Positions 3,500 to 36,912 of a DNA stretch of 64,000 bases are shown here, piece after piece (position 1 is the stretch's first letter; every line of letters begins with the position of its first letter). The DNA comes from a virus. Below the pieces are notes generated by a model. The model made no database searches, was not told the DNA's origin, and was given only the letters and a program-made list of their open reading frames with translations. The stretch is from IMG/VR virus record IMGVR_UViG_3300036766_000185, positions 32,182-96,181 of that record. The stretch is one strand, 5' to 3'. A program made the position numbers and the translations under genes.

Positions 3500-4888
3500 T
3501 CACATATCTTCGTCGTCTAGAAAGTCATGGAAACTACGAAGCCCCCGCTTTCCTGCATCGGAAGCTGCGCCGAATCCAGCAGGTGTTATCTTCTTCGCTG
3601 CCACTAGCTCAAGGTTGTTTATAAAATGCTTGCTTTTAAGAATGATCTTGTAGTTCTTATCAAGCGATTTCTCTTCTACTGCGGTCAGCACGGCTGAGTT
3701 CACCAATTCTTTGATATGTGCTCCGGTCATACCATCGGTCTTTTCACCAAGAGTCTTCATAAATTCGGCTTTCTTCTCTCCTGCTAGCCCAGCGAATAAG
3801 AAGTCTTTAGTGTACATATCTAGCATTTTCATTCGGCATTCTGCATCTGGAATCGGAACTTCGAGCACTCGATCGAATCTGCCTGGGCGATTTCTGATGG
3901 CAGTTTCAACCTCTTCAACCCGATTGGTAGTGGCGATTGTTACAACAAACTCGTTGCTAACAATCCCGTCGAGTTGGTTCATCAGTTCTCCTAAAACCTC
4001 GCCACGCGCTCGTTCTCGATGAGCACCATAGAGATCAATGTCCTCTAGAAACAGCACAGTGGGAGCCAATTCTCTGGCCATTTCACAAATTGCCTTCACG
4101 GCTCTAGCGCCCGCCTCAATGTGACCAGGAGTAACCCAAATAAAAGTAACGTCCTTGAGATTACTGCACAAGATCTTTCCAGTAAGAGTTTTTCCAGTCC
4201 CAGGCGGTCCTGCGAGAATTAGCCCCCGTTTAAAGCTTATGTTATTTTTCTCGTAGACCACGACGCTTTCTAACAACAGATTGACATTCTTAACAATTTC
4301 CTGTTTAATGTTGGTCGGTAGAGCGATATCATCCCAGGTGTATGCTCTTTCTAGCTTTATGTGCGTCAGTTCTGGGGTAATTTTCTTCCCTCTGAATATG
4401 TTATGAACTTGAACATACTCTTTGAGATCAGCTTGAAACTTCAAAGCTTTTGCTTTGTCCTCTGACAGATAGTACATTCGATATTTTGACATTTCTGGAG
4501 TCCAATTAGCCCACTCTACGGCAAGCTTCATATCGGGGCTTGATAGAAAGAGAATACCGTCATTTGGACCTTGCACAAAAACTTCTGGATCTGTTTCTAC
4601 CTCTTGATATTCGAAAGGATACTGATAGTCACCTTCTATATTAATAGCTTGCACGATCTTATATTTAGTCTTATTCAGATACTGCATAAATAGGGCTGAT
4701 CGAATTGCGTGTTGAATCGCAGAAAGATTCTCGGTGGTGTTACTAATTTGAGATAAATCTGCCTCAAAGAAGTCAGACAATAACTCAGACTTTAATCCTT
4801 GTTGTCTTTTAAATTTCTTTCCTAGCTTAATAACATCACCGAAGGTGATTTCGGAAATTTTCTTGTCTAGCGGGAGCTTATCTTCCAT
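3500..4888 (-). CDS. AAA+ ATPase (classical clade, no protease domain)
   Basis: Walker A GPPGTGKT, Walker B LFLEDID, second region of homology TTNR...AIRNRPGRFDR. Confidence 0.9.
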   Translation of the reverse strand: MEDKLPLDKKISEITFGDVIKLGKKFKRQQGLKSELLSDFFEADLSQISNTTENLSAIQHAIRSALFMQYLNKTKYKIVQAINIEGDYQYPFEYQEVETDPEVFVQGPNDGILFLSSPDMKLAVEWANWTPEMSKYRMYYLSEDKAKALKFQADLKEYVQVHNIFRGKKITPELTHIKLERAYTWDDIALPTNIKQEIVKNVNLLLESVVVYEKNNISFKRGLILAGPPGTGKTLTGKILCSNLKDVTFIWVTPGHIEAGARAVKAICEMARELAPTVLFLEDIDLYGAHRERARGEVLGELMNQLDGIVSNEFVVTIATTNRVEEVETAIRNRPGRFDRVLEVPIPDAECRMKMLDMYTKDFLFAGLAGEKKAEFMKTLGEKTDGMTGAHIKELVNSAVLTAVEEKSLDKNYKIILKSKHFINNLELVAAKKITPAGFGAASDAGKRGLRSFHDFLDDEDM

Positions 4889-5306
4889 GTCTCGATCTCC
4901 ATTTATTTTTCATTTTAGACAGAACTATAAGAGTCCCAAGAATCAATAACACACAAGAAATTGCTGGCATCATCAATCCGTGCCCAACAGTTAGTCCTAC
5001 GATGGCCACTCCCCAGAGGCTCGCCGCGGTTGTTAGCCCTTTCACCGAGGCTCTATTTCGCATAATCGTACCAGCACCAAGGAAGCCTATGCCACTCACC
5101 ACCTGTGCAGAAATTCTGCTAACATCCGCCCCAGAATAAATACTGTGCAAGTGAACATCAACGATAGCAGCCAAACAAGCACCAAGACCAACAAGGATGT
5201 GTGTTCTAAGCCCAGCGCCACGTCGTTGCAATTCTCGCTCATAGCCTATTAGGGCCGACAGAATCAACGACAAACTCAGTTTCTCTATCGGTAGAAGATC
5301 AATCAT
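4878..5306 (-). CDS. mgtC: MgtC/SapB family membrane protein (N-terminal domain only)
   Basis: IGYERE...AGLRTHILVGLGA...RISAQVVSGIGFLGAG...GLTTAASLW signature. Confidence 0.92.
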   Translation of the reverse strand: MIDLLPIEKLSLSLILSALIGYERELQRRGAGLRTHILVGLGACLAAIVDVHLHSIYSGADVSRISAQVVSGIGFLGAGTIMRNRASVKGLTTAASLWGVAIVGLTVGHGLMMPAISCVLLILGTLIVLSKMKNKWRSRHGR

Positions 5307-7669: not shown

Positions 7670-7940
7670 AATGTCTACTCTTTCGTTTATCTTTAGATAG
7701 GTGAACAGAGATCCAGGACCCCATCCCTGACCCTACAGCGTAGAAAAGTGCCACCCAGATATTATTGAGATTCTCTACAAGACTGCGCAACACGACGTAC
7801 CACACTAAAACGTAGATTGTTCCTGCTAGAAACGCCATCAATCCTCTGCCATGGGCTAGAGAGCGAGTATGCCAGCCATTAATGAAGTTTTCAGCTAGCC
7901 CAGCAACGAACAGCAGCGAAGCTACTCCCAAGAACGTCAT
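7617..7940 (-). CDS. Small multi-pass membrane protein (DUF5698/UPF0316-like)
   Basis: About three hydrophobic helices, YAVGSGMGSWI motif. Confidence 0.5.
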   Translation of the reverse strand: MTFLGVASLLFVAGLAENFINGWHTRSLAHGRGLMAFLAGTIYVLVWYVVLRSLVENLNNIWVALFYAVGSGMGSWISVHLSKDKRKSRHYAKTIKISKGDFSFPRY

Positions 7941-8488
7941 TGTACTTCTTGTCCTTCTACAGTCTTGTTTTCCTCAATCTTTACTTCGCGCTCTCCGTAC
8001 GTCTTTCCAAGAAAGTCAACTAGCTCTGTCCAGGAGCTAAAAATGCGCCCATGACGACGAATCACTCGCAGCAGCCAATAGCTCCATTCCTTCAACGGAG
8101 AGTAGCTTACAACGTACACAGGAATCCCTGTAACAATAACGGCGTGCCAAATCTCTGATATAGTCCCTGCTGACTGCTTACTGGGTTCATAATAAGCTAC
8201 TACCATATTGGCCTCTTCTACAAGCCTCTTGTCTCTGTCTATAAGTAAATCGACTAGATGATCGAAACGTTCCCAATTCTCTGCAGCTACGCACTCACTG
8301 ATCGTCTCTTTTACTGACTCCGGATTGCCTAACTCCTTAGCCTCATAGATTGTAGGATCAAGAGCAACTATGCCTAGCTTCTCTAGCAGCGGAGTTATTG
8401 TACGCCTCCAAGCTACCCCACCATCAGAGCTAGCCTGAATGCTGCCCGCTAGATAAGCTTTCATAGATGGAAGAGGCTCAGGAGCCAT
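7937..8488 (-). CDS. Nucleoside 2-deoxyribosyltransferase-like / nucleotide N-glycosidase
   Basis: YLAGSI...WR...LDP...D...SAGTISE pattern of the NDT superfamily. Confidence 0.75.
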   Translation of the reverse strand: MAPEPLPSMKAYLAGSIQASSDGGVAWRRTITPLLEKLGIVALDPTIYEAKELGNPESVKETISECVAAENWERFDHLVDLLIDRDKRLVEEANMVVAYYEPSKQSAGTISEIWHAVIVTGIPVYVVSYSPLKEWSYWLLRVIRRHGRIFSSWTELVDFLGKTYGEREVKIEENKTVEGQEVQ

Positions 8489-22442: not shown

Positions 22443-22961
22443 CTAGCCTCTAAAGTCTGCTTCATTTTCTTTTCCTAAGCAACATTTTTTAAATTTCTTC
22501 TTGCTTCCGCACGGACAGAGAGTATTCCTCCCTATCTTTACTGATCGATATTCTTTATCAGCAATCGTAATCCCGTACAGATGATCAAGTTCATGCTGTA
22601 CTACAATCGCCTCTAGCCCTGACAGCGCGTACTCTTTGTCGTCTCCGTTCTTCACAACGACCTCGGTCGCCCGCTGCACACTTTTCGTTAATCCTGGAAG
22701 ACTCAAGCATCCTTCTGAGTGCACGACGAAATCAGACGCTTTGATGATCTCAGGATTCCAGAGATTTAGTTTAGTGTCTTTTACTCTCACGATCGCCGCT
22801 CGCTTTAGTACGCCGATCTGTACGGCAGCCAATCCAACTCCTGGAGTCTCTGAGTTTGTTAATTCAGTCTCCAATCTGTCAAAGAGCAGAGCTAGATTGT
22901 CTGCCTTTTCCACTGGGTCCGATATTCGATTTAAGAGCACTTTTGATAGTTCAATCATCAA
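22443..22961 (-). CDS. def: Peptide deformylase with C-terminal SEC-C motif
   Basis: GVGLAAVQ, EGCLS and HELDH motifs; tail GRNTLCPCGSKKKFKKCC. Confidence 0.93.
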   Translation of the reverse strand: MMIELSKVLLNRISDPVEKADNLALLFDRLETELTNSETPGVGLAAVQIGVLKRAAIVRVKDTKLNLWNPEIIKASDFVVHSEGCLSLPGLTKSVQRATEVVVKNGDDKEYALSGLEAIVVQHELDHLYGITIADKEYRSVKIGRNTLCPCGSKKKFKKCCLGKENEADFRG

Positions 22962-23226: not shown

Positions 23227-24273
23227 CTATTGCTGCCGAGCGAACGTCGAAATCTCTGTTGTCAACTTAGAAACTAACTTCTGATCTGGACGCACAACGG
23301 CTAAAAAGTTCTTTATCCCATTCGCTTTAATATCGCCATACGTATAGACGCTCCCACTTCTATGAATCAAGTCGTACAAAGTACCATATCTTATGATCTC
23401 TTCTAGCGTATCGACCTGCCCCTGCAACGGGCCTTGAAAGTACAACGTAAACTGTCCCTCCCTATATGGACTATAGGTCTTGTTCTTTTTAGTCAGGAAC
23501 TTGATCACGTGCCCAATTTTTACCTTATCACCCGCAGCGTTGTCCTCTTCGATCCACTCACCGTGCTTAAAGCGCACACGAATAGACGCTGCAAATCTAA
23601 TACCCATACCCCCTGGAGTAGTCTCAGGGTCACCATAAACTATACCGATTTTTAGTCGAATCTGATTTATCAATAGCACTATGCAGTTATTCCAATCGTT
23701 GTTCTCATTCAGCGAATTTAGCGCTGCAGACAGTCTACGAATAGCGCGATTCATAAGTAGCGCTCGCTCTCCAATCTTCTCTACATCATCAACAACTGAC
23801 TTGTCAAGCTCGCTCTGTGGACTCATGGCAGCCACGCTGTCTAGAACAACTATTCCGCAATCACCCGATCGAACAAACGCTTCCAAGACTTCAACCGCCT
23901 GTTCAGAAGTTTCAGGACGTGAGTAGATAAGACTTGCTACATCAACGCCCATCAACTCCGCCCATTTAGAGTCCCAGGTATTCTCAACGTCAATATAAAC
24001 TGCGGTCTTTCCCGACTTCTGCACATTTGCTATAAGTTTTAACGCCATCGTGGTTTTCCCAGAGCTTTCCGCTCCGTACCACTCGATGATTCGTCCAAGA
24101 GGCATCCCTCCGCCACATTCAATATCGAGAGAAAGTGAGCCAGTTGAGACACGCTCTAGATCAACAGTTTTAATCCCAGATCCTTTCATCGCCAGACCTG
24201 TCCCGTATTTCTTTTGGAGACGACTCATGATCTCCTCGGCGTTACTCATCGCTGATACGCTCTCCGATTTCAT
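23227..24273 (-). CDS. recA: RecA recombinase (likely start about 24250)
   Basis: STGSLSLD..GGG.P.GRIIE.YGAESSGKTT, VLDSVAAM, INQIR, ETTPGG. Confidence 0.95.
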   Translation of the reverse strand: MKSESVSAMSNAEEIMSRLQKKYGTGLAMKGSGIKTVDLERVSTGSLSLDIECGGGMPLGRIIEWYGAESSGKTTMALKLIANVQKSGKTAVYIDVENTWDSKWAELMGVDVASLIYSRPETSEQAVEVLEAFVRSGDCGIVVLDSVAAMSPQSELDKSVVDDVEKIGERALLMNRAIRRLSAALNSLNENNDWNNCIVLLINQIRLKIGIVYGDPETTPGGMGIRFAASIRVRFKHGEWIEEDNAAGDKVKIGHVIKFLTKKNKTYSPYREGQFTLYFQGPLQGQVDTLEEIIRYGTLYDLIHRSGSVYTYGDIKANGIKNFLAVVRPDQKLVSKLTTEISTFARQQ

Positions 24274-24694
24274 TGATGTGCTTCATCAACTCTTTAGCTG
24301 CTCCTAGCGACTCCTGACTGTGAATATCGCGGGCATGCCCTGGAACTCGGCTTTTTCGCATTTCGAATTGAAATCCTCGTCCAAGTTTTACTCGATCTCG
24401 CTTTACTATGACGTACGGATGAATCATTTTCAGAAATCGATCCGCCATGTTGGCTGTTAAAATCCAATCACCAACGGGCTTGTGCATCCCATGACGCTTG
24501 TAAACTCGAAGATATCCACCGAATTTTCTGTGAATTGATTTCATAAGATCCAGATGAGTATTTACAATTCCGATTCTAAGCGAATAGACCGTAGTCTTTG
24601 TTAGAGGCTTCAAGCTTCGTAGAATTGTTAGATATCCTTCTCCGTCGAACAGACCAGCTAGATATTTCGGAGTTAGTCTATCTTCGATTTCCAT
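24242..24694 (-). mobile_element. Free-standing single-motif LAGLIDADG homing endonuclease
   Basis: YLAGLFDGEG motif; sits between ruvC and recA with overlaps at both ends. Confidence 0.85.
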
Positions 24695-25773: not shown

Positions 25774-25803
25774 AGTATACACTACCTGATGTATCGGTGT
25801 CAA
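25774..25803 (-). promoter_or_regulatory. Sigma70-type promoter of the repeated family
   Basis: TTGACA-CCGATACATCAGGTAGTG-TATACT. Confidence 0.8.
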
Positions 25804-26174
25804 GTATTTGACTTCCAACGAATATCGTCAGTTCCAATGACGCGCTTCTCGAACATTATTAGCGTGAGACAGTGCCAGGCCGCGTGTGCTAGATGATGCT
25901 TTCCACTTTCGGGGTCATACGATTCTCCGTTTAGCCATAGCATTAAATGTCGATACAGCGCATTTACCGAAAGCGACCATTTATAGCCCTTACGATAATT
26001 TGTGGGGTCATATTTCTGTGCCCCATACCCATAGACGCTGCCTAGCTCACTCAGCGCTTCGGGCGGTGCCCATCCCAACTGAGATTCTTTGCTACCCTTA
26101 GCTCCGCCAGTCTTAGGGTCAACAACAATCGTCTCTACTACTCGACTTGTCATTAGGCGCTCGCTAGATTTCAA
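25800..26174 (-). CDS. DUF5664 family protein (dATP/dGTP diphosphohydrolase N-terminal-like)
   Basis: GG.K...V.GYGAQKY...NYRKG..WS....L.RH...W..GE..DPESG.HHLAHAAW. Confidence 0.8.
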   Translation of the reverse strand: MKSSERLMTSRVVETIVVDPKTGGAKGSKESQLGWAPPEALSELGSVYGYGAQKYDPTNYRKGYKWSLSVNALYRHLMLWLNGESYDPESGKHHLAHAAWHCLTLIMFEKRVIGTDDIRWKSNT

Positions 26175-28563: not shown

Positions 28564-28592
28564 AGTATATCACACCGTGTTAGTGCTGTTAA
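28564..28592 (-). promoter_or_regulatory. Sigma70-type promoter of the repeated family
   Basis: TTAACA-N17-TATACT with CGGTGTGA before the -10. Confidence 0.65.
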
Positions 28593-31096
28593 TTATTCTC
28601 TTTGGCATACTTGAGATTTCCAAGAGATTTCCCATACTTTACTTCCACCGCAAGAGGCACAATAATTCCAGGCATAGCTCTGGTCATTTCTCGTTCCATA
28701 ATCTCCGCAGCTTTCTTCCAATCGCTCTCGCGTACCTCAGTAACCAGTGAATCATGAACAGGCAATACGAGCCGCGCTGTTGGACACTCTGCTTTGAAGG
28801 CCATAGCAATACGATTCATTGCCGCATAAAGTATGTGTGCTTCAAGATTTTGTATCGGGAAATTCACTGCCGATCGCTCTGCATGACCTCTCATCTTCTG
28901 ATCAGGAGACGTAATTTCTGGCAATCGACGACGCGCTCCAAAGAGACTTATTACAAATCCGCGCTGTCTAGCCTCTTGAATCTTTCCTTGTGCATACTGT
29001 CTCGCTTTTGGACAGTTGGCAAAAAAGCGGGTGATATACACCTGTGCTTTCTCTTCACTAATTTTGAAGTGAGAGGCGATTTTCCACGCCGACGCTCCCA
29101 TAATAGTCGCGTACGTGAACGCCTTAGCATTTTGTCTCTCTTCTTTTGTAATTTGATCTTCTGGCTTATTAAAGATCATTGATGCTATAACCTTGTGCAC
29201 GTCGCGCTTTTGTCTAAGATCTTCAATCATTTTCTGATCGTTCATGTAGTTTACCCAAATCCTGAATTGAATTTGCGCATAGTCTGCAGCCACCAAGACA
29301 CAACCCTCGTCAGCCACAAAAATATCTCTCGCTCGACTAGCTATGGTTGCTTTGCCACTTTCATCTTTTTCATCACGCGCAATATTCTGCAGATTGGGAT
29401 TACGAGAGGCTAAGCGGTGAATCTCAGTTCCATACAGTAGAAACTTGCTGTGAATACGTCCATCTTTTCGAATAAACGCTTCGAAATTCTCACCGTAGGC
29501 CGACACCAGATGCTCATATGACCTCTTCTCTGTGATCATTCTTGGAATTTCGTGCACACCAGCAAGCTCTTTAAGCGTGATTTCATCTGTCGATGCATTC
29601 CCCGTTTTAGTCTTTTTAACCGGCCTGAGCTTGAGAATATTGAACAGAATCTTTCGCAATTGTACTGGAGAACTGTAATTAATCTCATCTAGTTCCAGCA
29701 TAACTTTGGCTTGCGCGGTAACAGGATGCGCCTGCAGTTGCTTGTCAATATCCTCGGCGTACGATTGATACTCTTGACGAGTGGCATGAAGTCTCTCAAT
29801 ATCAATCTTCACCCCTGCCCATTCTACGTCGATCAGCGTATTCTGCACCGGCATCATGATACGTCTGAACACGGGCATTAGATTTTGTGTGTCTAGCTCT
29901 TTTAAGAACAATCTACGCAATCGTCCGGTAGCGTCCACGTCAGCAGCCGCATAGGGCCATAGCACGTCGAAAGGAATCTTAGCAAAATCGACGGTCTTCT
30001 TGGCGTATGTCTTGTCTCCCTCAATTACGAGCTTAGTCTTCCATTCCTCGATTTCTGCATTGTACATACCCAAGTCTGTGAACTCTAGCGCCAACTCTTT
30101 AAGGCCATGACTTCTTGCATTCTCATTTAGGAGATGGTGCATGATAATCGTATCGTATGCGAAGTTCTTCACTTGAATCCCAATTGCTCGTAGAAAGGGA
30201 ATATCAAACGCTCCTAGATGTGCAGATTTTGACACGTCAGACTCAAAGAACGTCTTAATCTCTTGCATCACGTCTGCTTGACGCTCACTCCACCATTCTT
30301 TTCCGTCTACGAAAATCGGCACTACATACGCCACGCGCTCGGCAGGGGAGAACCCAATCGAAATAATGCGATGCTTATCTACATCAAGCCCTGTCGTTTC
30401 AAGGTCGAAGTCTACCGTCTCTGCCGCTCGTAGCTCTGCAAGAGCCGCATCCAGATCCTCAAGCGTTTTGACAAGTTGATAGTCCGTAGGCAGTCTCTTA
30501 GTCTCCAGCGATTTTCCTTCAAGCATCAACTTAATCATTCGCAAGTCCTTGACAAATTGATCTTTCAGTCGTGTATCTCCAGGATTGCGAAGAATATACG
30601 ATGGATGATAGGTCGGTACCAGTTTACAATTAAAATCCTCACTAGAGAAGATAGATCCTCGCAAGCGTGTAATACCCGCTTTATCAAGAAAGACCTTTAG
30701 CGCTGTCGCTCCAAGTAATACTATGATCTTAGGTTGCACTTCTCGAATTTCTCTGATTAGATACGACGCATCACCAACGATCTCACTCATGGTTGGGACA
30801 CGATTCTCAGGAGGGCGCACATGATACACATTTGTAATATAGACCTGCTCACGGTCAAATCCGGCCTCAATAAGACATTTCGTAAGCACCTGCCCAGCAG
30901 GACCAACAAATGGTTTTCCTTGCGCATCTTCCTCAGCGCCAGGAGCTTCACCAATAAACATGAGTTCAGCAGGCGTAGGACCCGCGCCACAGACATATCG
31001 TGCATTTGGGATAGGGAGCGCACCTTCTGGGCACTCCTTGAATACTACGCTAATTATAGGTTCTGCTATCTTTTTAGTGTTCATTCTCGTAGTCAT
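28589..31096 (-). CDS. polA: Family A DNA polymerase with N-terminal family-4 uracil-DNA-glycosylase-like domain (SPO1-type architecture)
   Basis: GEAPGAEED...RPPENR...TYHPSYILR (UDG); DLETTG/FD/YAAAD (exonuclease); [12 protein letters not shown], motif A DYAQIQFR, motif [15 protein letters not shown], motif C VHDS. Confidence 0.95.
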
Positions 31097-33402
31097 GATA
31101 CCGTCACAGCATCCTTTATGGGATGTGCTATGCTGTGATACATTTGCATCTTCTCTTTGCTACATTCTACGAGCGTGTGAAACGAATCGTAAAAATCGTA
31201 ATACAGTCGTCCTCTAAAGGACGACGTACGATTTTTAGCACCAAAGTTAATCTCAACAATGGGCATCCACTCTCCGCTAGCTTGATTTATAACTTTCAGC
31301 TTAGCGGTTTCTACGCCTCTCGTATTCAGTTCATTGTACATCACACCGACCACATCCGCGTCGTATCCAAAGTCCGAACTTTCTTTAATGTCATCGATTG
31401 TGGGAAGTTTGTTGCTGTCGCGCTCAGGTCGACGCAATTCTACAGTAGCTAGAATCGGCACGTTATATATGTTTCTCCAGCGTTTGATAGCGTCAGAGAT
31501 CTGTATAGAGTCCTCTCGTCTGTTGTTGCTAAATTTCTGCGGCACTCGAATACGATGCAAACTGTCGATGATCACTACCAGTTGTTTCTCTCCAGCTATT
31601 TGCTTATACATACTGATGTATCGTTCAACATCAGTAATATCTCTGATACTAGTCTCATCCTTAATAGCGAATGAATTGGAAAGACTGTGTAAATATTTCA
31701 GAGCATCGTCGTACTTTGCTTTTAGACGTGCTCGTTCCTCCTCAGTGTAGGCCTCGTTTAGCTCAATGCGATACTTGGGATTTAGCATTGAGTTGATCTC
31801 TAGCCCACAACGCATGGCTAGCAGCCGAGCGATTACCCCATCTTCCGATTCATCAAGAGACAAGCATAGAATTGACGCCTTTTCAGGATTTGATTCGAGA
31901 ATATTCATCGCGAGATTTCGCACAAACGCACTCTTGCCCGTTCCCTGATAACCAGCAAAAAGATATACTTGATTCTGTAATCCGTCCATAACGTCTGTAA
32001 AAATTGGGTAACCGCAGGACAGTCCCAGTCGTAATCCGCGCATTTTAGCTTGCTGCTCAAAGCGCAGCAGCGACTGTCCTAACAGCGACTTCTCTTTAAT
32101 CATATCTGCTTCGACGATGAGAGTCGTATCACCTTCTCTAGCGATAATGTCGTCGAACGCCTCTGTAATCACCTCCAAGCGAACATCGAGTTCCTTAGCC
32201 ATACGCTTGCACATCTGCTCTTGATCGATTCTATCTCTCTCTAGCAAGATGGCACGGAGCGCTCGGTCACGATGTGCTTTGTCCTTTGATTCCTTAAACT
32301 TCTCCAAATAATGCTCAAACATCGACCGGCGGCCTGATGTTAGCAAGAAGTCGTGTTTATTTAAGCACTCATCAGCATCCTTACAGTCGTCGCGCACTTT
32401 CAAATATAATGATATGCCGTCGGACGACTTGACGCGCCGCATAATAACCTCTTCGCCAGCTTGCCCACTTGCGTCGTTGTCAAGACATAATTCAATGTCC
32501 TTCACGCCCTTTCGCAGAAGCGCCTTTATATGCTCGTCGGTGAAGTTTACCCCGCATAGGCCCACCACATTTTTAATTCCCTTTTTCCATAGAGTAACAA
32601 CGTCTGCAAATCCCTCCACTAAAATTACACTATTCTCGTTATTCTTGATCTGATTGAGATTATACAATACGTCTGACTTTTTATACACAGGAGTGTACGA
32701 GGAGTTAATATAAGATTCTACTCCCTGCTTTTCGGCCTCCACTCGATTCAATAGAGTACGACTAGCAAATCCAACCACGCGTCCATACACATCCTTAATT
32801 GGAAACAGCAATCGTCGATTAAGCAACTTTTCAGAGACTAGTCCTGCATCAACGAGCAATTCACTTTCATAGCCTCTTTTGGATAGCGCCTCGATAAGTT
32901 TCTCATACGAGCAATAACCCAATAAAAATTCGCCAGCAACACTATCCCAGCCACGCGCCCTAACGTACTCCATAGTCGTCTCTGATTTGCGCAGCCCCAG
33001 ATGAGCAAGTTCGGCTGCTGCTTTCAGAACTTCGTAGATTTTATTACGTCGCGCTTCTTCTGGACTTAAATCTTCATATTCGATCTGCACTTTAAGAAGC
33101 TCAGCCAGATACAGTAGCGTGTCTTGCACCCAGGTGGGACCGTCCTTTGGCTTGTCCTCTAAAAGTCGCGCTGCGTCGAAGATATCACCTTTTTCAAGAC
33201 AGGCATGACACTTAAATCGCGTATCGTCCGGGAAGAATCCGCAGCTAAAATTGATATCGTTGTTCGAGTGAAATACTCGATTGGGACACTGAAACATCTG
33301 TCCATTTGACGAGAACTGAGTCTGTTTAAGCTCTAGATATCGACCCAAGCCTTGTCTAACAACAGATTTCAGACCGTTCATGTCTTTTACTTTGCGCAGC
33401 AT
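31093..33402 (-). CDS. Primase-helicase fusion (DnaG-type primase plus DnaB-type helicase)
   Basis: Zinc finger, [34 protein letters not shown], Walker [29 protein letters not shown]. Confidence 0.92.
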
Positions 33403-35506: not shown

Positions 35507-35839
35507 TTAACAATTTTTCGTCTCATCTTCAAAGTTCCTGCTAAACAAGCGTCTAGCTTCCAGCCAGTCCTTAACTCGTGAATCGTCCATTTCGAAATCT
35601 TCACCATGTTTAAGAGTCGCAATAATTTCTCGCTTAAACTCGTCATACCATGCTAGGGCTTCGTCTACAGATGCTCCAAAATGTAGCAGTAGAGCAAGAG
35701 CAAGCTGCGACGGTCCACTTCCCAAATAGCCCCATTGAAAACCCGTGGGAGAATGATCTACCACTTTGCGACTAGCCTCCAAATCTAAGGGCTTGCCGTC
35801 TACGTAAACCATGTTTTCTTGGGTGATTCCCGTAATCAT
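35507..35839 (-). CDS. DUF6166-like protein
   Basis: HSPTGFQWGYLGSGPSQLALALL motif. Confidence 0.7.
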   Translation of the reverse strand: MITGITQENMVYVDGKPLDLEASRKVVDHSPTGFQWGYLGSGPSQLALALLLHFGASVDEALAWYDEFKREIIATLKHGEDFEMDDSRVKDWLEARRLFSRNFEDETKNC

Positions 35840-36912
35840 TCTATTCTCCTCACCCAGTTCTGAAAGCCTGTTGATACGTACACGATTGGAGTTGCTACGT
35901 CCTTTTCCAACTTAGCGATCTGCTCTTCTGCTGCGGCGTCCAAAATCTGACTATTATGCAAGTCAGGTCTTAAGTAATCAAAGAAACTGAGAGCGATAGC
36001 ATCTGGCTCGCAGGCCTCGACCATCGCCTCTACTAGTTCTGGATTCCACTTTGCGATTCTGCGAATACGCTTGGTCACCGTAGTTCTCTCTGGCTGTATG
36101 TACCCGCCAGTTTGCGCAGCCAATTCGTCCCAAGTAACTTCTTCTCCCATGTACCCTGAGGGGCCAGCAACGCGAATTGGAAATGTTCGCATCACAGCTA
36201 TAGTAACGTAGTTCACATTGTTTGTCAATCCAACATCGTTCAACACCTGAGGAGGAGTAATATCTCTACTTGTGGCCGTTGGGTAAAATGGCCCATTGAG
36301 GCTTAGACCCCAGCCCTGTGTACTCTCCACGACAATTGCCGTGTTTCTATCTCGATATTGCTTTCGAAGCTCTTTGCCTACATCTCCGATGTACGACTGC
36401 AAAATCTCAACATTCTTAGCAACCGTAGCGCGGCGCATAACTTTGTCAGCTTGAGCCGCTCCAACTCCTTCTCCGGTGCTACCAATGCCTTTAACTAGAT
36501 CGTGCTCTGCTTCTCGGTGTTTTTCTTCGACTATTGTAACATGACGATCAATCATCAGGTGCTCTTGACAATAGTTAGCGCCCATGTGTGCGTCTACTAG
36601 ATCTATCTCTCTGTGTAGAACTTCAAGATCAATCAGCGCACCAGGTCCGATGTAAAGCTTAGCTTTGTCGTTGAACCACCCACACGGAATCTGACGCATA
36701 GCATAGACTCGTCCATCAACTATAATCGAATGTCCAGCTTGCGGCCCGCCAGACCGTACAACGGATAGATTCTGAAGCCCCGTTGCAGCGTTAATGTTCA
36801 CTCTGTTCTTAGGGTCTACGAGCCAAGCGATATAAGCCCCCTTACCTTCGCTTCCGAAGGCTCCGCCAATCACTATCCACACCGAACTCTCATAGAGCGA
36901 TGCACGTCTCAT
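35836..36912 (-). CDS. purZ: PurZ/PurZ0-like adenylosuccinate-synthetase homolog (putative 2-aminoadenine pathway)
   Basis: GGAFGSEGKG (Ser where PurA has catalytic Asp in GDEGKG), AGH, IGSTGEGVG, ESTQG, RTFPIRVAGPSG, ERTTVTKRIRR, SFFDY; short archaeal/PurZ-type length. Confidence 0.8.
   Translation of the reverse strand: MRRASLYESSVWIVIGGAFGSEGKGAYIAWLVDPKNRVNINAATGLQNLSVVRSGGPQAGHSIIVDGRVYAMRQIPCGWFNDKAKLYIGPGALIDLEVLHREIDLVDAHMGANYCQEHLMIDRHVTIVEEKHREAEHDLVKGIGSTGEGVGAAQADKVMRRATVAKNVEILQSYIGDVGKELRKQYRDRNTAIVVESTQGWGLSLNGPFYPTATSRDITPPQVLNDVGLTNNVNYVTIAVMRTFPIRVAGPSGYMGEEVTWDELAAQTGGYIQPERTTVTKRIRRIAKWNPELVEAMVEACEPDAIALSFFDYLRPDLHNSQILDAAAEEQIAKLEKDVATPIVYVSTGFQNWVRRIE

Follow-up and report, generated by a model that had tools for sequence, protein, structure and literature searches.

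This analysis concerns a DNA polymerase gene in a 64,000-nucleotide stretch of viral DNA (the window), which comprises bases 32182-96181 of the 96,181-bp IMG/VR record IMGVR_UViG_3300036766_000185 (G000), rated complete by CheckV. The encoded protein, P0001, joins a UDG (uracil-DNA glycosylase) domain, a 3'-5' exonuclease and a family A polymerase (PolA). No other DNA polymerase turned up in the 96-kb record: PolA gave a single match, and scans of the same record for PolB and PrimPol gave none. In P0001 the pair formed by the steric-gate Glu (A2, position 710) and the O-helix Tyr (B4, position 766) is absent – Q610 and M666 stand in its place – and a Glu is present instead at position 852. Positions 666, 668 and 705 to 883 are those of the Klenow fragment unless a P0001 residue is named. 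The gene, its domains and its active-site motifs are listed below.

28589..31096, minus strand: UDG / 3'-5' exonuclease / family A polymerase P0001, 835 residues (open reading frame translation)
30539..30988, minus strand: family 4 UDG-like domain, residues 37-186, with GEAPG (residue 49) and HPSY (residue 164) kept
29894..30481, minus strand: 3'-5' exonuclease domain, residues 206-401, with Exo I FDLETTG, Exo II FDIPFL and Exo III YAAADVD intact
28622..29758, minus strand: polymerase domain, residues 447-825 (Pfam and Klenow alignment)
29405..29428, minus strand: TGR motif TEIHRLAS, with I559 at Klenow T666 (codon 29420-29422)
29261..29284, minus strand: motif A DYAQIQFR, residues 605-612, with Q610 at steric-gate Glu710 (codon CAA, 29267-29269)
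29096..29137, minus strand: motif B / O-helix, residues 654-667, with residue 662 at F762, A663 at G763 and M666 at Y766 (ATG, 29099-29101)
28835..28858, minus strand: helix Q motif PIQNLEAH, with E752 at Klenow A852 (codon 28841-28843)
28745..28759, minus strand: motif C VHDSL, residues 780-784 (E883S), ordinary for UDG-PolAs

The polymerase and its nucleotide pocket

All three domains are recognized by Pfam (PF03167, 1.7e-37; PF01612, 3.1e-19; PF00476, 3e-96), the last with a score of 323 bits over residues 447-825 against a curated cut-off of 34.3. The alignment of P0001 to the Thermotoga maritima UDG (133 bits) begins at residue 6: the 835-residue start is therefore favoured over the 790-residue database gene call (P0002), and this supports the view that the latter begins 45 residues too late. 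The ATG so defined overlaps the stop of the primase-helicase gene (window 31093-31096), which suggests translational coupling. Compared with TM0511, the UDG region at window 30539-31033 has three of the four Fe-S cysteines replaced (by G, V and D) and keeps the first Cys of the CxxC; at the position of residue 109 a Cys is conserved in 86% of background relatives. A solved protein of 1142 residues, described as a 'putative DNA-directed DNA polymerase I' (PDB 9qhs chain A), matches the UDG domain with E 6.7e-15, and may be both the first experimental UDG-PolA structure and a modelling template for P0001.

The closest cultured-phage proteins are SPO1-type UDG-PolAs, with 26-32% identity over ~95% of the length of P0001, and a megablast of the window DNA against cultured phages gave no match. 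A search of viral contigs with the P0001 sequence alone found nothing. The sole public sequencing run containing DNA of this phage is one sediment metagenome, which is probably its source.

A HMMER alignment to the Klenow fragment (8oo6/1d9d) covers residues 206-824 (E 4e-74). The catalytic residues are kept (D605, D782, R654 and K658, at D705, D882, R754 and K758), as are R561 (R668), N745, Q749 (Q849) and H781 (H881). The same alignment pairs Klenow ADYSQIELRI with motif A of the window and Klenow RRSAKAINFGLIYGMSA with motif B, and the substitutions relative to Klenow are E710Q, F762Y, G763A, L764T and Y766M. An earlier reading of this DNA (hereafter the original prediction) had drawn attention to the interval 29096-29287, taking motif A as E710Q and motif B as F762Y, G763A and Y766M: translation and alignment agree with both assignments, and both motifs lie within that interval. 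Three further differences had been overlooked, namely T666I (residue 559), the Glu at 852 (residue 752) and E883S. The last was considered as a special feature and rejected, HDS/HDA being the norm in UDG-PolAs.

Distribution and coupling of the substitutions

The comparison took in approximately 560 family A polymerases, drawn from four sets: 266 homologues out of two large protein searches, 80 IMG/VR loci, 160 further metagenomic and bacterial loci, and 45 proteins from a search restricted to residues 590-800. Among these, Gln710 is limited to P0001-P0007 (including loci L003 and L187) plus one unrelated enzyme, P0080 (a 1110-residue PolA without a UDG domain, which has Gln710, Phe766 and Glu852). 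Met766 is found only in the clade of the window, where the residue at 766 is either Met or Phe. Gln710 is absent from roughly 250 other UDG-PolAs, the restricted search added no further Gln-gate polymerases, and the extra bacterial and metagenomic PolAs are E710/Y766 without exception (160/160). That 710 and 766 are near-invariant in family A and act as a pair, as had been claimed, is in keeping with both the rarity of the change and the fact that the two positions change together; nor are Gln710 and Met766 common among SPO1-type UDG-PolAs, which were checked because the original prediction would have lost its force had they been so.

The change extends beyond these two residues. Gln710 is invariably accompanied by a residue other than Tyr at 766 and by Glu at 852: among ~500 sequences Glu852 was counted 10 times, and these are the very ones that have Gln710 (P0080 included); every Gln710 enzyme has the helix Q motif PIQxLE. 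Since the three always occur together they form a coupled triad, more than a pair. The substitution is thus a three-way coupled swap at 710, 766 and 852, and it is seen twice independently. A fourth position, 666, is Thr in 461 of 518 sequences; Ile or Val occurs there only in the Gln clade, in L004/P0126 and in P0055/L042.

A scan of the whole protein, with conservation of at least 80% in the background and complete replacement in the Gln clade as its two conditions, gave six positions. Those at residues 109, 294 and 663 are altered as well in the sister clade that retains Glu710 and Tyr766 (the E/Y sister clade). The remaining three – T666 (I or V in the Gln clade), E710 (Q) and Y766 (M or F) – all belong to the polymerase active site. 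F762Y and G763A had been listed by the original prediction along with E710Q and Y766M; neither can be assigned to the special change, both being common to the E/Y sister clade and F762Y being present in further relatives (outgroups) as well.

In a maximum-likelihood tree P0001 nests among UDG-PolAs, and the Gln enzymes form one clade (SH-aLRT 99) that is sister (100) to seven E/Y enzymes (P0008-P0011, P0122, L090 and L091). The next branch (support 87) is a lineage with Asp710, in which L004/P0126 has Phe766 and P0167 has Tyr766; the canonical P0124 branches after it. Efforts to enlarge these groups gave little: P0080 is absent from IMG/VR and cultured phages offered no close relative of it, P0008 and P0010 of the sister clade are not in IMG/VR, a contig scan with P0008 returned bacterial Pol I only, and an alignment scan for the Asp710 lineage recovered one genome alone (G002).

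The purZ gene and its co-occurrence with the triad

A purZ gene lies 4.7 kb upstream of the polymerase gene. It and two other features of the replication region are given here.

31093..33402, minus strand: DnaG-type primase fused to a DnaB-like helicase, immediately upstream of the polymerase gene and overlapping its start
35836..36912, minus strand: PurZ0-like 2-aminoadenylosuccinate synthetase, P-loop GGAFGSEGKG, in which Ser replaces the PurA catalytic Asp
25800..26174, minus strand: DUF5664 (PF18909), N-terminal domain family of dATP/dGTP diphosphohydrolases

The hallmark of the PurZ group is a Ser where PurA has its catalytic Asp (PMC12884076), and this P-loop position is Ser in 126 of 127 aligned sequences (homologues and references). 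Three observations concern the type of PurZ: the P-loop follows the pattern GG..GSE.KG; among solved structures the best match is PurZ0 of Gordonia phage Archimedes (7VF6), with 160 bits versus 116 bits for phiVC8 PurZ; and a quick tree, with supports of only 90-98, places the window PurZ nearer to the Wayne/Archimedes group than to the phiVC8 type, outside the actinophage clade. The claim that the phage carries PurZ0 is thus borne out to the extent that a Ser-signature, PurZ0-like gene is present, and it is therefore a reasonable prediction that this phage replaces adenine by 2-aminoadenine (Z). P0001 is accordingly described here as the predicted active, proofreading and sole replicative polymerase of a putative Z phage.

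Co-occurrence of purZ and the triad was assessed in whole IMG/VR records and in contigs. A Ser-signature purZ is present in the window record, in G001 (which contains L003) and in G051 (L187). A 65%-identical PurZ is encoded on a 23,613-bp Logan contig of the same size and source as the contig encoding P0005, and a partial 67%-identical PurZ on an 11,257-bp ENA contig of the same size and source as that encoding P0003. Every member of the Gln clade with enough contig is hence purZ-positive (5/5, two of them by matched size and source). A second purZ-positive lineage, G002/L004, has D710, F766, T852 and I666. The tree places its PurZ away from that of the Gln clade, which argues for a separate acquisition. 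The Gln-gate G001 and the Asp-gate G002 were assembled from the same metagenome (IMG 3300019458). Both determinable lineages without a Glu gate are therefore purZ-positive (2/2), as against ~8% of the sampled UDG-PolA records (rough estimate p ~0.006, n=2). The outgroup P0124 is without purZ in 127 kb. A metagenome scan added two short sister-clade contigs, L090 and L091, both of which end short of the purZ position.

In other UDG-PolA genomes the P-loop of the Ser-signature PurZ reads DGQWGSTGKG (phiVC8-type) in G058 and G059, and GLQAGSEGKG (PurZ0-like) in G013 (loci L015; L059, L060). Streptomyces phage Hiyaa was considered as a cultured phage with both UDG-PolA and purZ, and was rejected: its PolA has no UDG domain.

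Directly upstream of purZ is an ABC-ATPase gene, the 'acyltransferase' that the original prediction had made part of the context of the polymerase. Its location is one reason to consider that the pocket serves a different or an additional base modification, either a hypermodified thymine of the SPO1 type or a purine acylated by way of this gene; another is that the UDG-PolAs of SPO1, SP-10 and SP-15 work on genomes that contain modified uracil derivatives (PMC10201439). However, in the two closest phages, which also have the triad, the 22-kb polymerase loci (L003 and L187) contain no homologue of the ABC-ATPase gene. This gene therefore belongs to no conserved system, and the acyltransferase link was rejected. 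Moreover, Pfam scans of the replication region found no thymidylate hydroxymethylase-like or glucosyltransferase gene, and the loss of three of the four Fe-S ligands from the UDG domain also speaks against this explanation, which we regard as highly improbable.

The set of dATP-clearing enzymes in this predicted Z phage is unusually thin: the G000 record has no match to a DatZ-type HD protein, to DUF550 or to a dUTPase. DUF5664 of phages is reported to be active on dATP and dGTP (PMC12884076). The slot that it occupies, behind a conserved open reading frame of 212 residues, varies (window 25800-26174, L187 15189-15749, L091 6689-7201), DUF5664 being its occupant in G000 and G001, whereas G051 and the sister-clade contig L091 have a T4-type dNMP kinase (PF21448) there. 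On this distribution DUF5664 was rejected as a constant partner. A 183-residue open reading frame (7937-8488, minus strand) has sub-threshold Pfam matches to nucleoside 2-deoxyribosyltransferase (NDT) families (E 2e-4 and 5e-4); NDT-like DmtZ enzymes are reported to be enriched in PurZ0 phages (PMC12884076) and also on contigs that are enriched in dZ (bioRxiv 10.1101/2025.10.22.683976).

Other genes near the polymerase encode a PD-(D/E)XK nuclease, RecA, RuvC, Rad50/Mre11-like proteins, and DNA and RNA ligases. A LAGLIDADG-type homing-endonuclease-like open reading frame (24242-24694, minus strand) sits between the RuvC and RecA genes. Two accessory genes are host-like, one of the MgtC family (2.7e-38; 4878-5306, minus strand) and one for a peptide deformylase whose C-terminus carries a SEC-C motif (22443-22961, minus strand).

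Possible roles of the altered pocket and comparison with known polymerases

In the Klenow fragment E710 and Y766 are a hydrogen-bonded pair that lines the pocket of the nascent base pair (Hohlbein et al. 2013, PMC3715850). With E710Q the overall Kd for A-dTTP goes up from 0.83 to 230 µM and closing of the fingers on this pair is disfavoured, while Y766A closes poorly on both A-dTTP and T-dATP but behaves like the wild type with G-dCTP (PMC3715850). Since closing depends in this way on the base pair, a weakened pocket floor could penalise pairs with two hydrogen bonds and spare those with three.

Polymerases that prefer Z are known from cultured phages. There are two DpoZ subfamilies, phiVC8-like and Wayne-like, considered a case of convergence, the former going with PurZ and the latter with PurZ0 (PMC12884076, PMC10201439). 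An alignment of eight cultured Z-phage polymerases shows that both DpoZ clades keep Glu710 and have Phe766, and Phe at this position (B4) is the sole substitution common to the two (PMC8599892, PMC10201439). DpoZ in which the exonuclease is dead retains its preference for Z: selectivity must therefore lie on the polymerase side, and no determinant of it has been found in the published DpoZ structures. P0001 falls outside both DpoZ clusters, #18 and #19 (21-24% identity, E 1e-8 to 3e-21). With the functional class it shares the presence of purZ in the genome and the loss of the B4 Tyr.

The reading that we favour, tentatively and at slightly below an even chance, is that the P0001 clade represents a third, convergent DpoZ-like replicase, of the UDG-PolA type, in a Z phage. 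According to this hypothesis the canonical pocket floor, the hydrogen-bonded Glu710 and Tyr766, would have given way to the triad of Gln710, Met or Phe766 and Glu852 (on helix Q), accompanied by Ile or Val at Thr666, next to the minor-groove Arg668. The carboxylate would have been relocated from 710 to 852, where it could hold Gln710; Gln710 would keep the sugar gate, and the hydroxyl of Tyr766 would become dispensable. A floor remodelled in this manner may alter how firmly the fingers close on weak as opposed to strong pairs, in which case P0001 would be expected to work well on the three-bond pairs Z:T and G:C and poorly on A:T. A Z-selective P0001 would then contribute to the exclusion of dATP, the phage having no DatZ, DUF550 or dUTPase-like enzyme. 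Both the contacts between these residues and any preference for Z over A are what we infer; the residues themselves, their coupling, their restriction to one UDG-PolA clade and their co-occurrence with purZ are observations.

A narrower version of the favoured reading holds that the triad and Ile666 read the nascent pair from the minor groove and favour 2-amino purines (Z and G), either through a direct hydrogen bond or through closing of the fingers that depends on a three-bond pair. We think this version unlikely.

A wider setting is provided by a preprint of 2025, according to which the UDG Pfam domain is one of those associated with aquatic contigs experimentally enriched in dZ (bioRxiv 10.1101/2025.10.22.683976). 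This fits UDG-PolAs as common replicases of environmental Z phages, a role that they may indeed have.

Several points weigh against a Z-selective P0001. From the literature, the authors of the DpoZ studies consider Phe at B4 unlikely to explain the choice between Z and A (PMC8599892, PMC10201439); a Z genome can do without polymerase selectivity, as cyanophage S-2L demonstrates (PMC10201439); Klenow Y766F differs little from the wild type, and E710Q alone is a slow mutator (PMC3715850). From the present data, G013 (183,765 bp), G058 and G059 are purZ-positive with an E710/F762/Y766 UDG-PolA as their only PolA, and the strict coupling of Gln710 to Glu852 recurs in the unrelated, non-UDG P0080. 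The contrast with the E/Y sister clade is also limited: its contigs (98,557; 72,119; 23,396; 14,673 and 13,520 bp) are not among the 120 best PurZ homologues, but that list misses the PurZ of G002 (39% identical) too, and so excludes only a close sister-clade orthologue. Finally, the gain of purZ and the triad fall on one branch, so that the five purZ-positive members of the Gln clade are a single evolutionary event; with the Asp lineage there are only two independent co-occurrences of an altered triad or gate with purZ.

These points bear on an explanation that is almost as likely as a third DpoZ-like replicase, and which we consider quite plausible: that the pocket has been rewired with its function preserved. 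The gate carboxylate would have moved from 710 to 852, Gln710 would be held by Glu852 and Tyr766 thereby freed, leaving an ordinary, accurate replicase; the co-occurrence with purZ would be a coincidence of descent, and dATP would be excluded by DUF5664 and other enzymes. Such a compensation is what the perfect coupling of Gln710, non-Tyr766 and Glu852 in two lineages that are unrelated to each other, P0080 being a PolA without a UDG domain, would lead one to expect. It is likewise consistent with the near-wild-type behaviour of Klenow Y766F, with the three purZ-positive UDG-PolA lineages that function with the canonical pair, and with the occurrence of Phe766 alongside Glu710 in ~10% of UDG-PolAs, including the complete, purZ-less genomes G049 and G055. 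It accounts less well for the finding that both determinable non-Glu-gate lineages carry purZ against so low a background, and for G002, which alters the same four positions to other residues, a pattern that no single compensation story predicts. Neither is the change of T666 to I/V obviously tied to compensation between 710 and 852, and the known DpoZ clades, too, are without Tyr766.

The proposal that the dual change is an adaptation to a modified purine thus stands in part. It gains from the clade-wide linkage to purZ, while the triad with Glu852 suggests internal compensation at least equally; and the count of linkage itself cuts both ways, the Gln clade being uniformly purZ-positive and three purZ-positive UDG-PolA lineages keeping E710/Y766.

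A further explanation is that the pocket has altered sugar selectivity, and accepts ribonucleotides, dideoxynucleotides or other 2'/3'-modified nucleotides, with Tyr762 as in T7. Tabor and Richardson are said to have reported in 1995 that Tyr at 762 abolishes discrimination against dideoxynucleotides in family A enzymes. E710 and Y766, moreover, are the residues that exclude ribonucleotides (PMC3715850, PMC10201439). Yet Gln is isosteric with Glu, and Klenow E710Q does not bind A-rUTP any better than the wild type does (K2 0.056 vs 0.083; PMC3715850). The relocated Glu852 argues for a preserved pocket geometry, Tyr762 is also present in the canonical sister clade, and Pfam scans revealed no feature of the genome that points to sugar-modified nucleotides: we judge altered sugar selectivity to be improbable.

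Whichever explanation holds, a third purZ-linked family A lineage, and with G002 a fourth, both of UDG-PolA architecture, have changed the same O-helix Tyr as DpoZ. The P0001 clade and G002 have also changed the hydrogen-bond partner of this Tyr, the helix Q residue, and the residue beside the minor-groove Arg. This turns a vague convergence among DpoZ enzymes into a four-residue hypothesis that is open to point mutants and standard kinetics. If the favoured reading is true, then Z-selective replication arose at least three times, and polymerase engineers would have a handle toward adenine-free or other expanded DNA. If the minor-groove version is true, the A2-B4-helix Q triad would be the long-sought polymerase-side determinant of Z versus A, and would be transferable to other family A enzymes. 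If the Z reading fails, the Gln710/Glu852 swap would remain a natural example of another way to build a pocket that is invariant according to the textbooks.

Comparison with known systems places P0001 as follows. The phiVC8-like DpoZ (cluster #18, Czernecki et al. 2023; PDB 7PBK) is likewise a family A enzyme with an active 3'-5' exonuclease, is encoded within a few kb of purZ in a predicted Z-genome phage, and has lost the O-helix Tyr (B4). It is, however, only 22-23% identical to P0001 and has no UDG domain; it has a Glu gate, Leu at B3, Phe at B4 and clade-specific insertions, whereas P0001 has a Gln gate, Tyr at B3, Met at B4 and the extra Glu852. Its preference for Z is a measured one, that of P0001 a predicted one. 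The Wayne-like DpoZ (cluster #19; 'DpoZ-1' of PMC12884076) goes with the PurZ0 side of the PurZ tree, to which the window PurZ may belong, and resembles P0001 in having a residue other than Tyr at B4, but differs in its identity (21-24%), in the absence of a UDG domain, in its Glu gate and in Ser at T666. Wayne-like phages use DutZ and DmtZ, whereas the window genome has no dUTPase match and only the weak NDT-like open reading frame.

The SPO1-type UDG-PolAs (Bacillus phages SPO1 and SP-10; counted as unclassified in Czernecki et al. 2023) have the same UDG, exonuclease and PolA architecture and the HDS/HDA form of motif C. Unlike P0001 they keep Glu710 and Tyr766 and serve genomes with 5-hydroxymethyluracil, and no purZ has been reported in them. 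The Klenow mutants E710Q, Y766A and Y766F (PMC3715850) concern the same two positions and display base-pair-dependent closing of the fingers. Each of the single changes E710Q and Y766A makes Klenow a mutator, and E710Q makes it slow as well; in P0001 the changes are accompanied by Glu852 and Ile666, in an enzyme that is the sole predicted replicase of a 96-kb genome.

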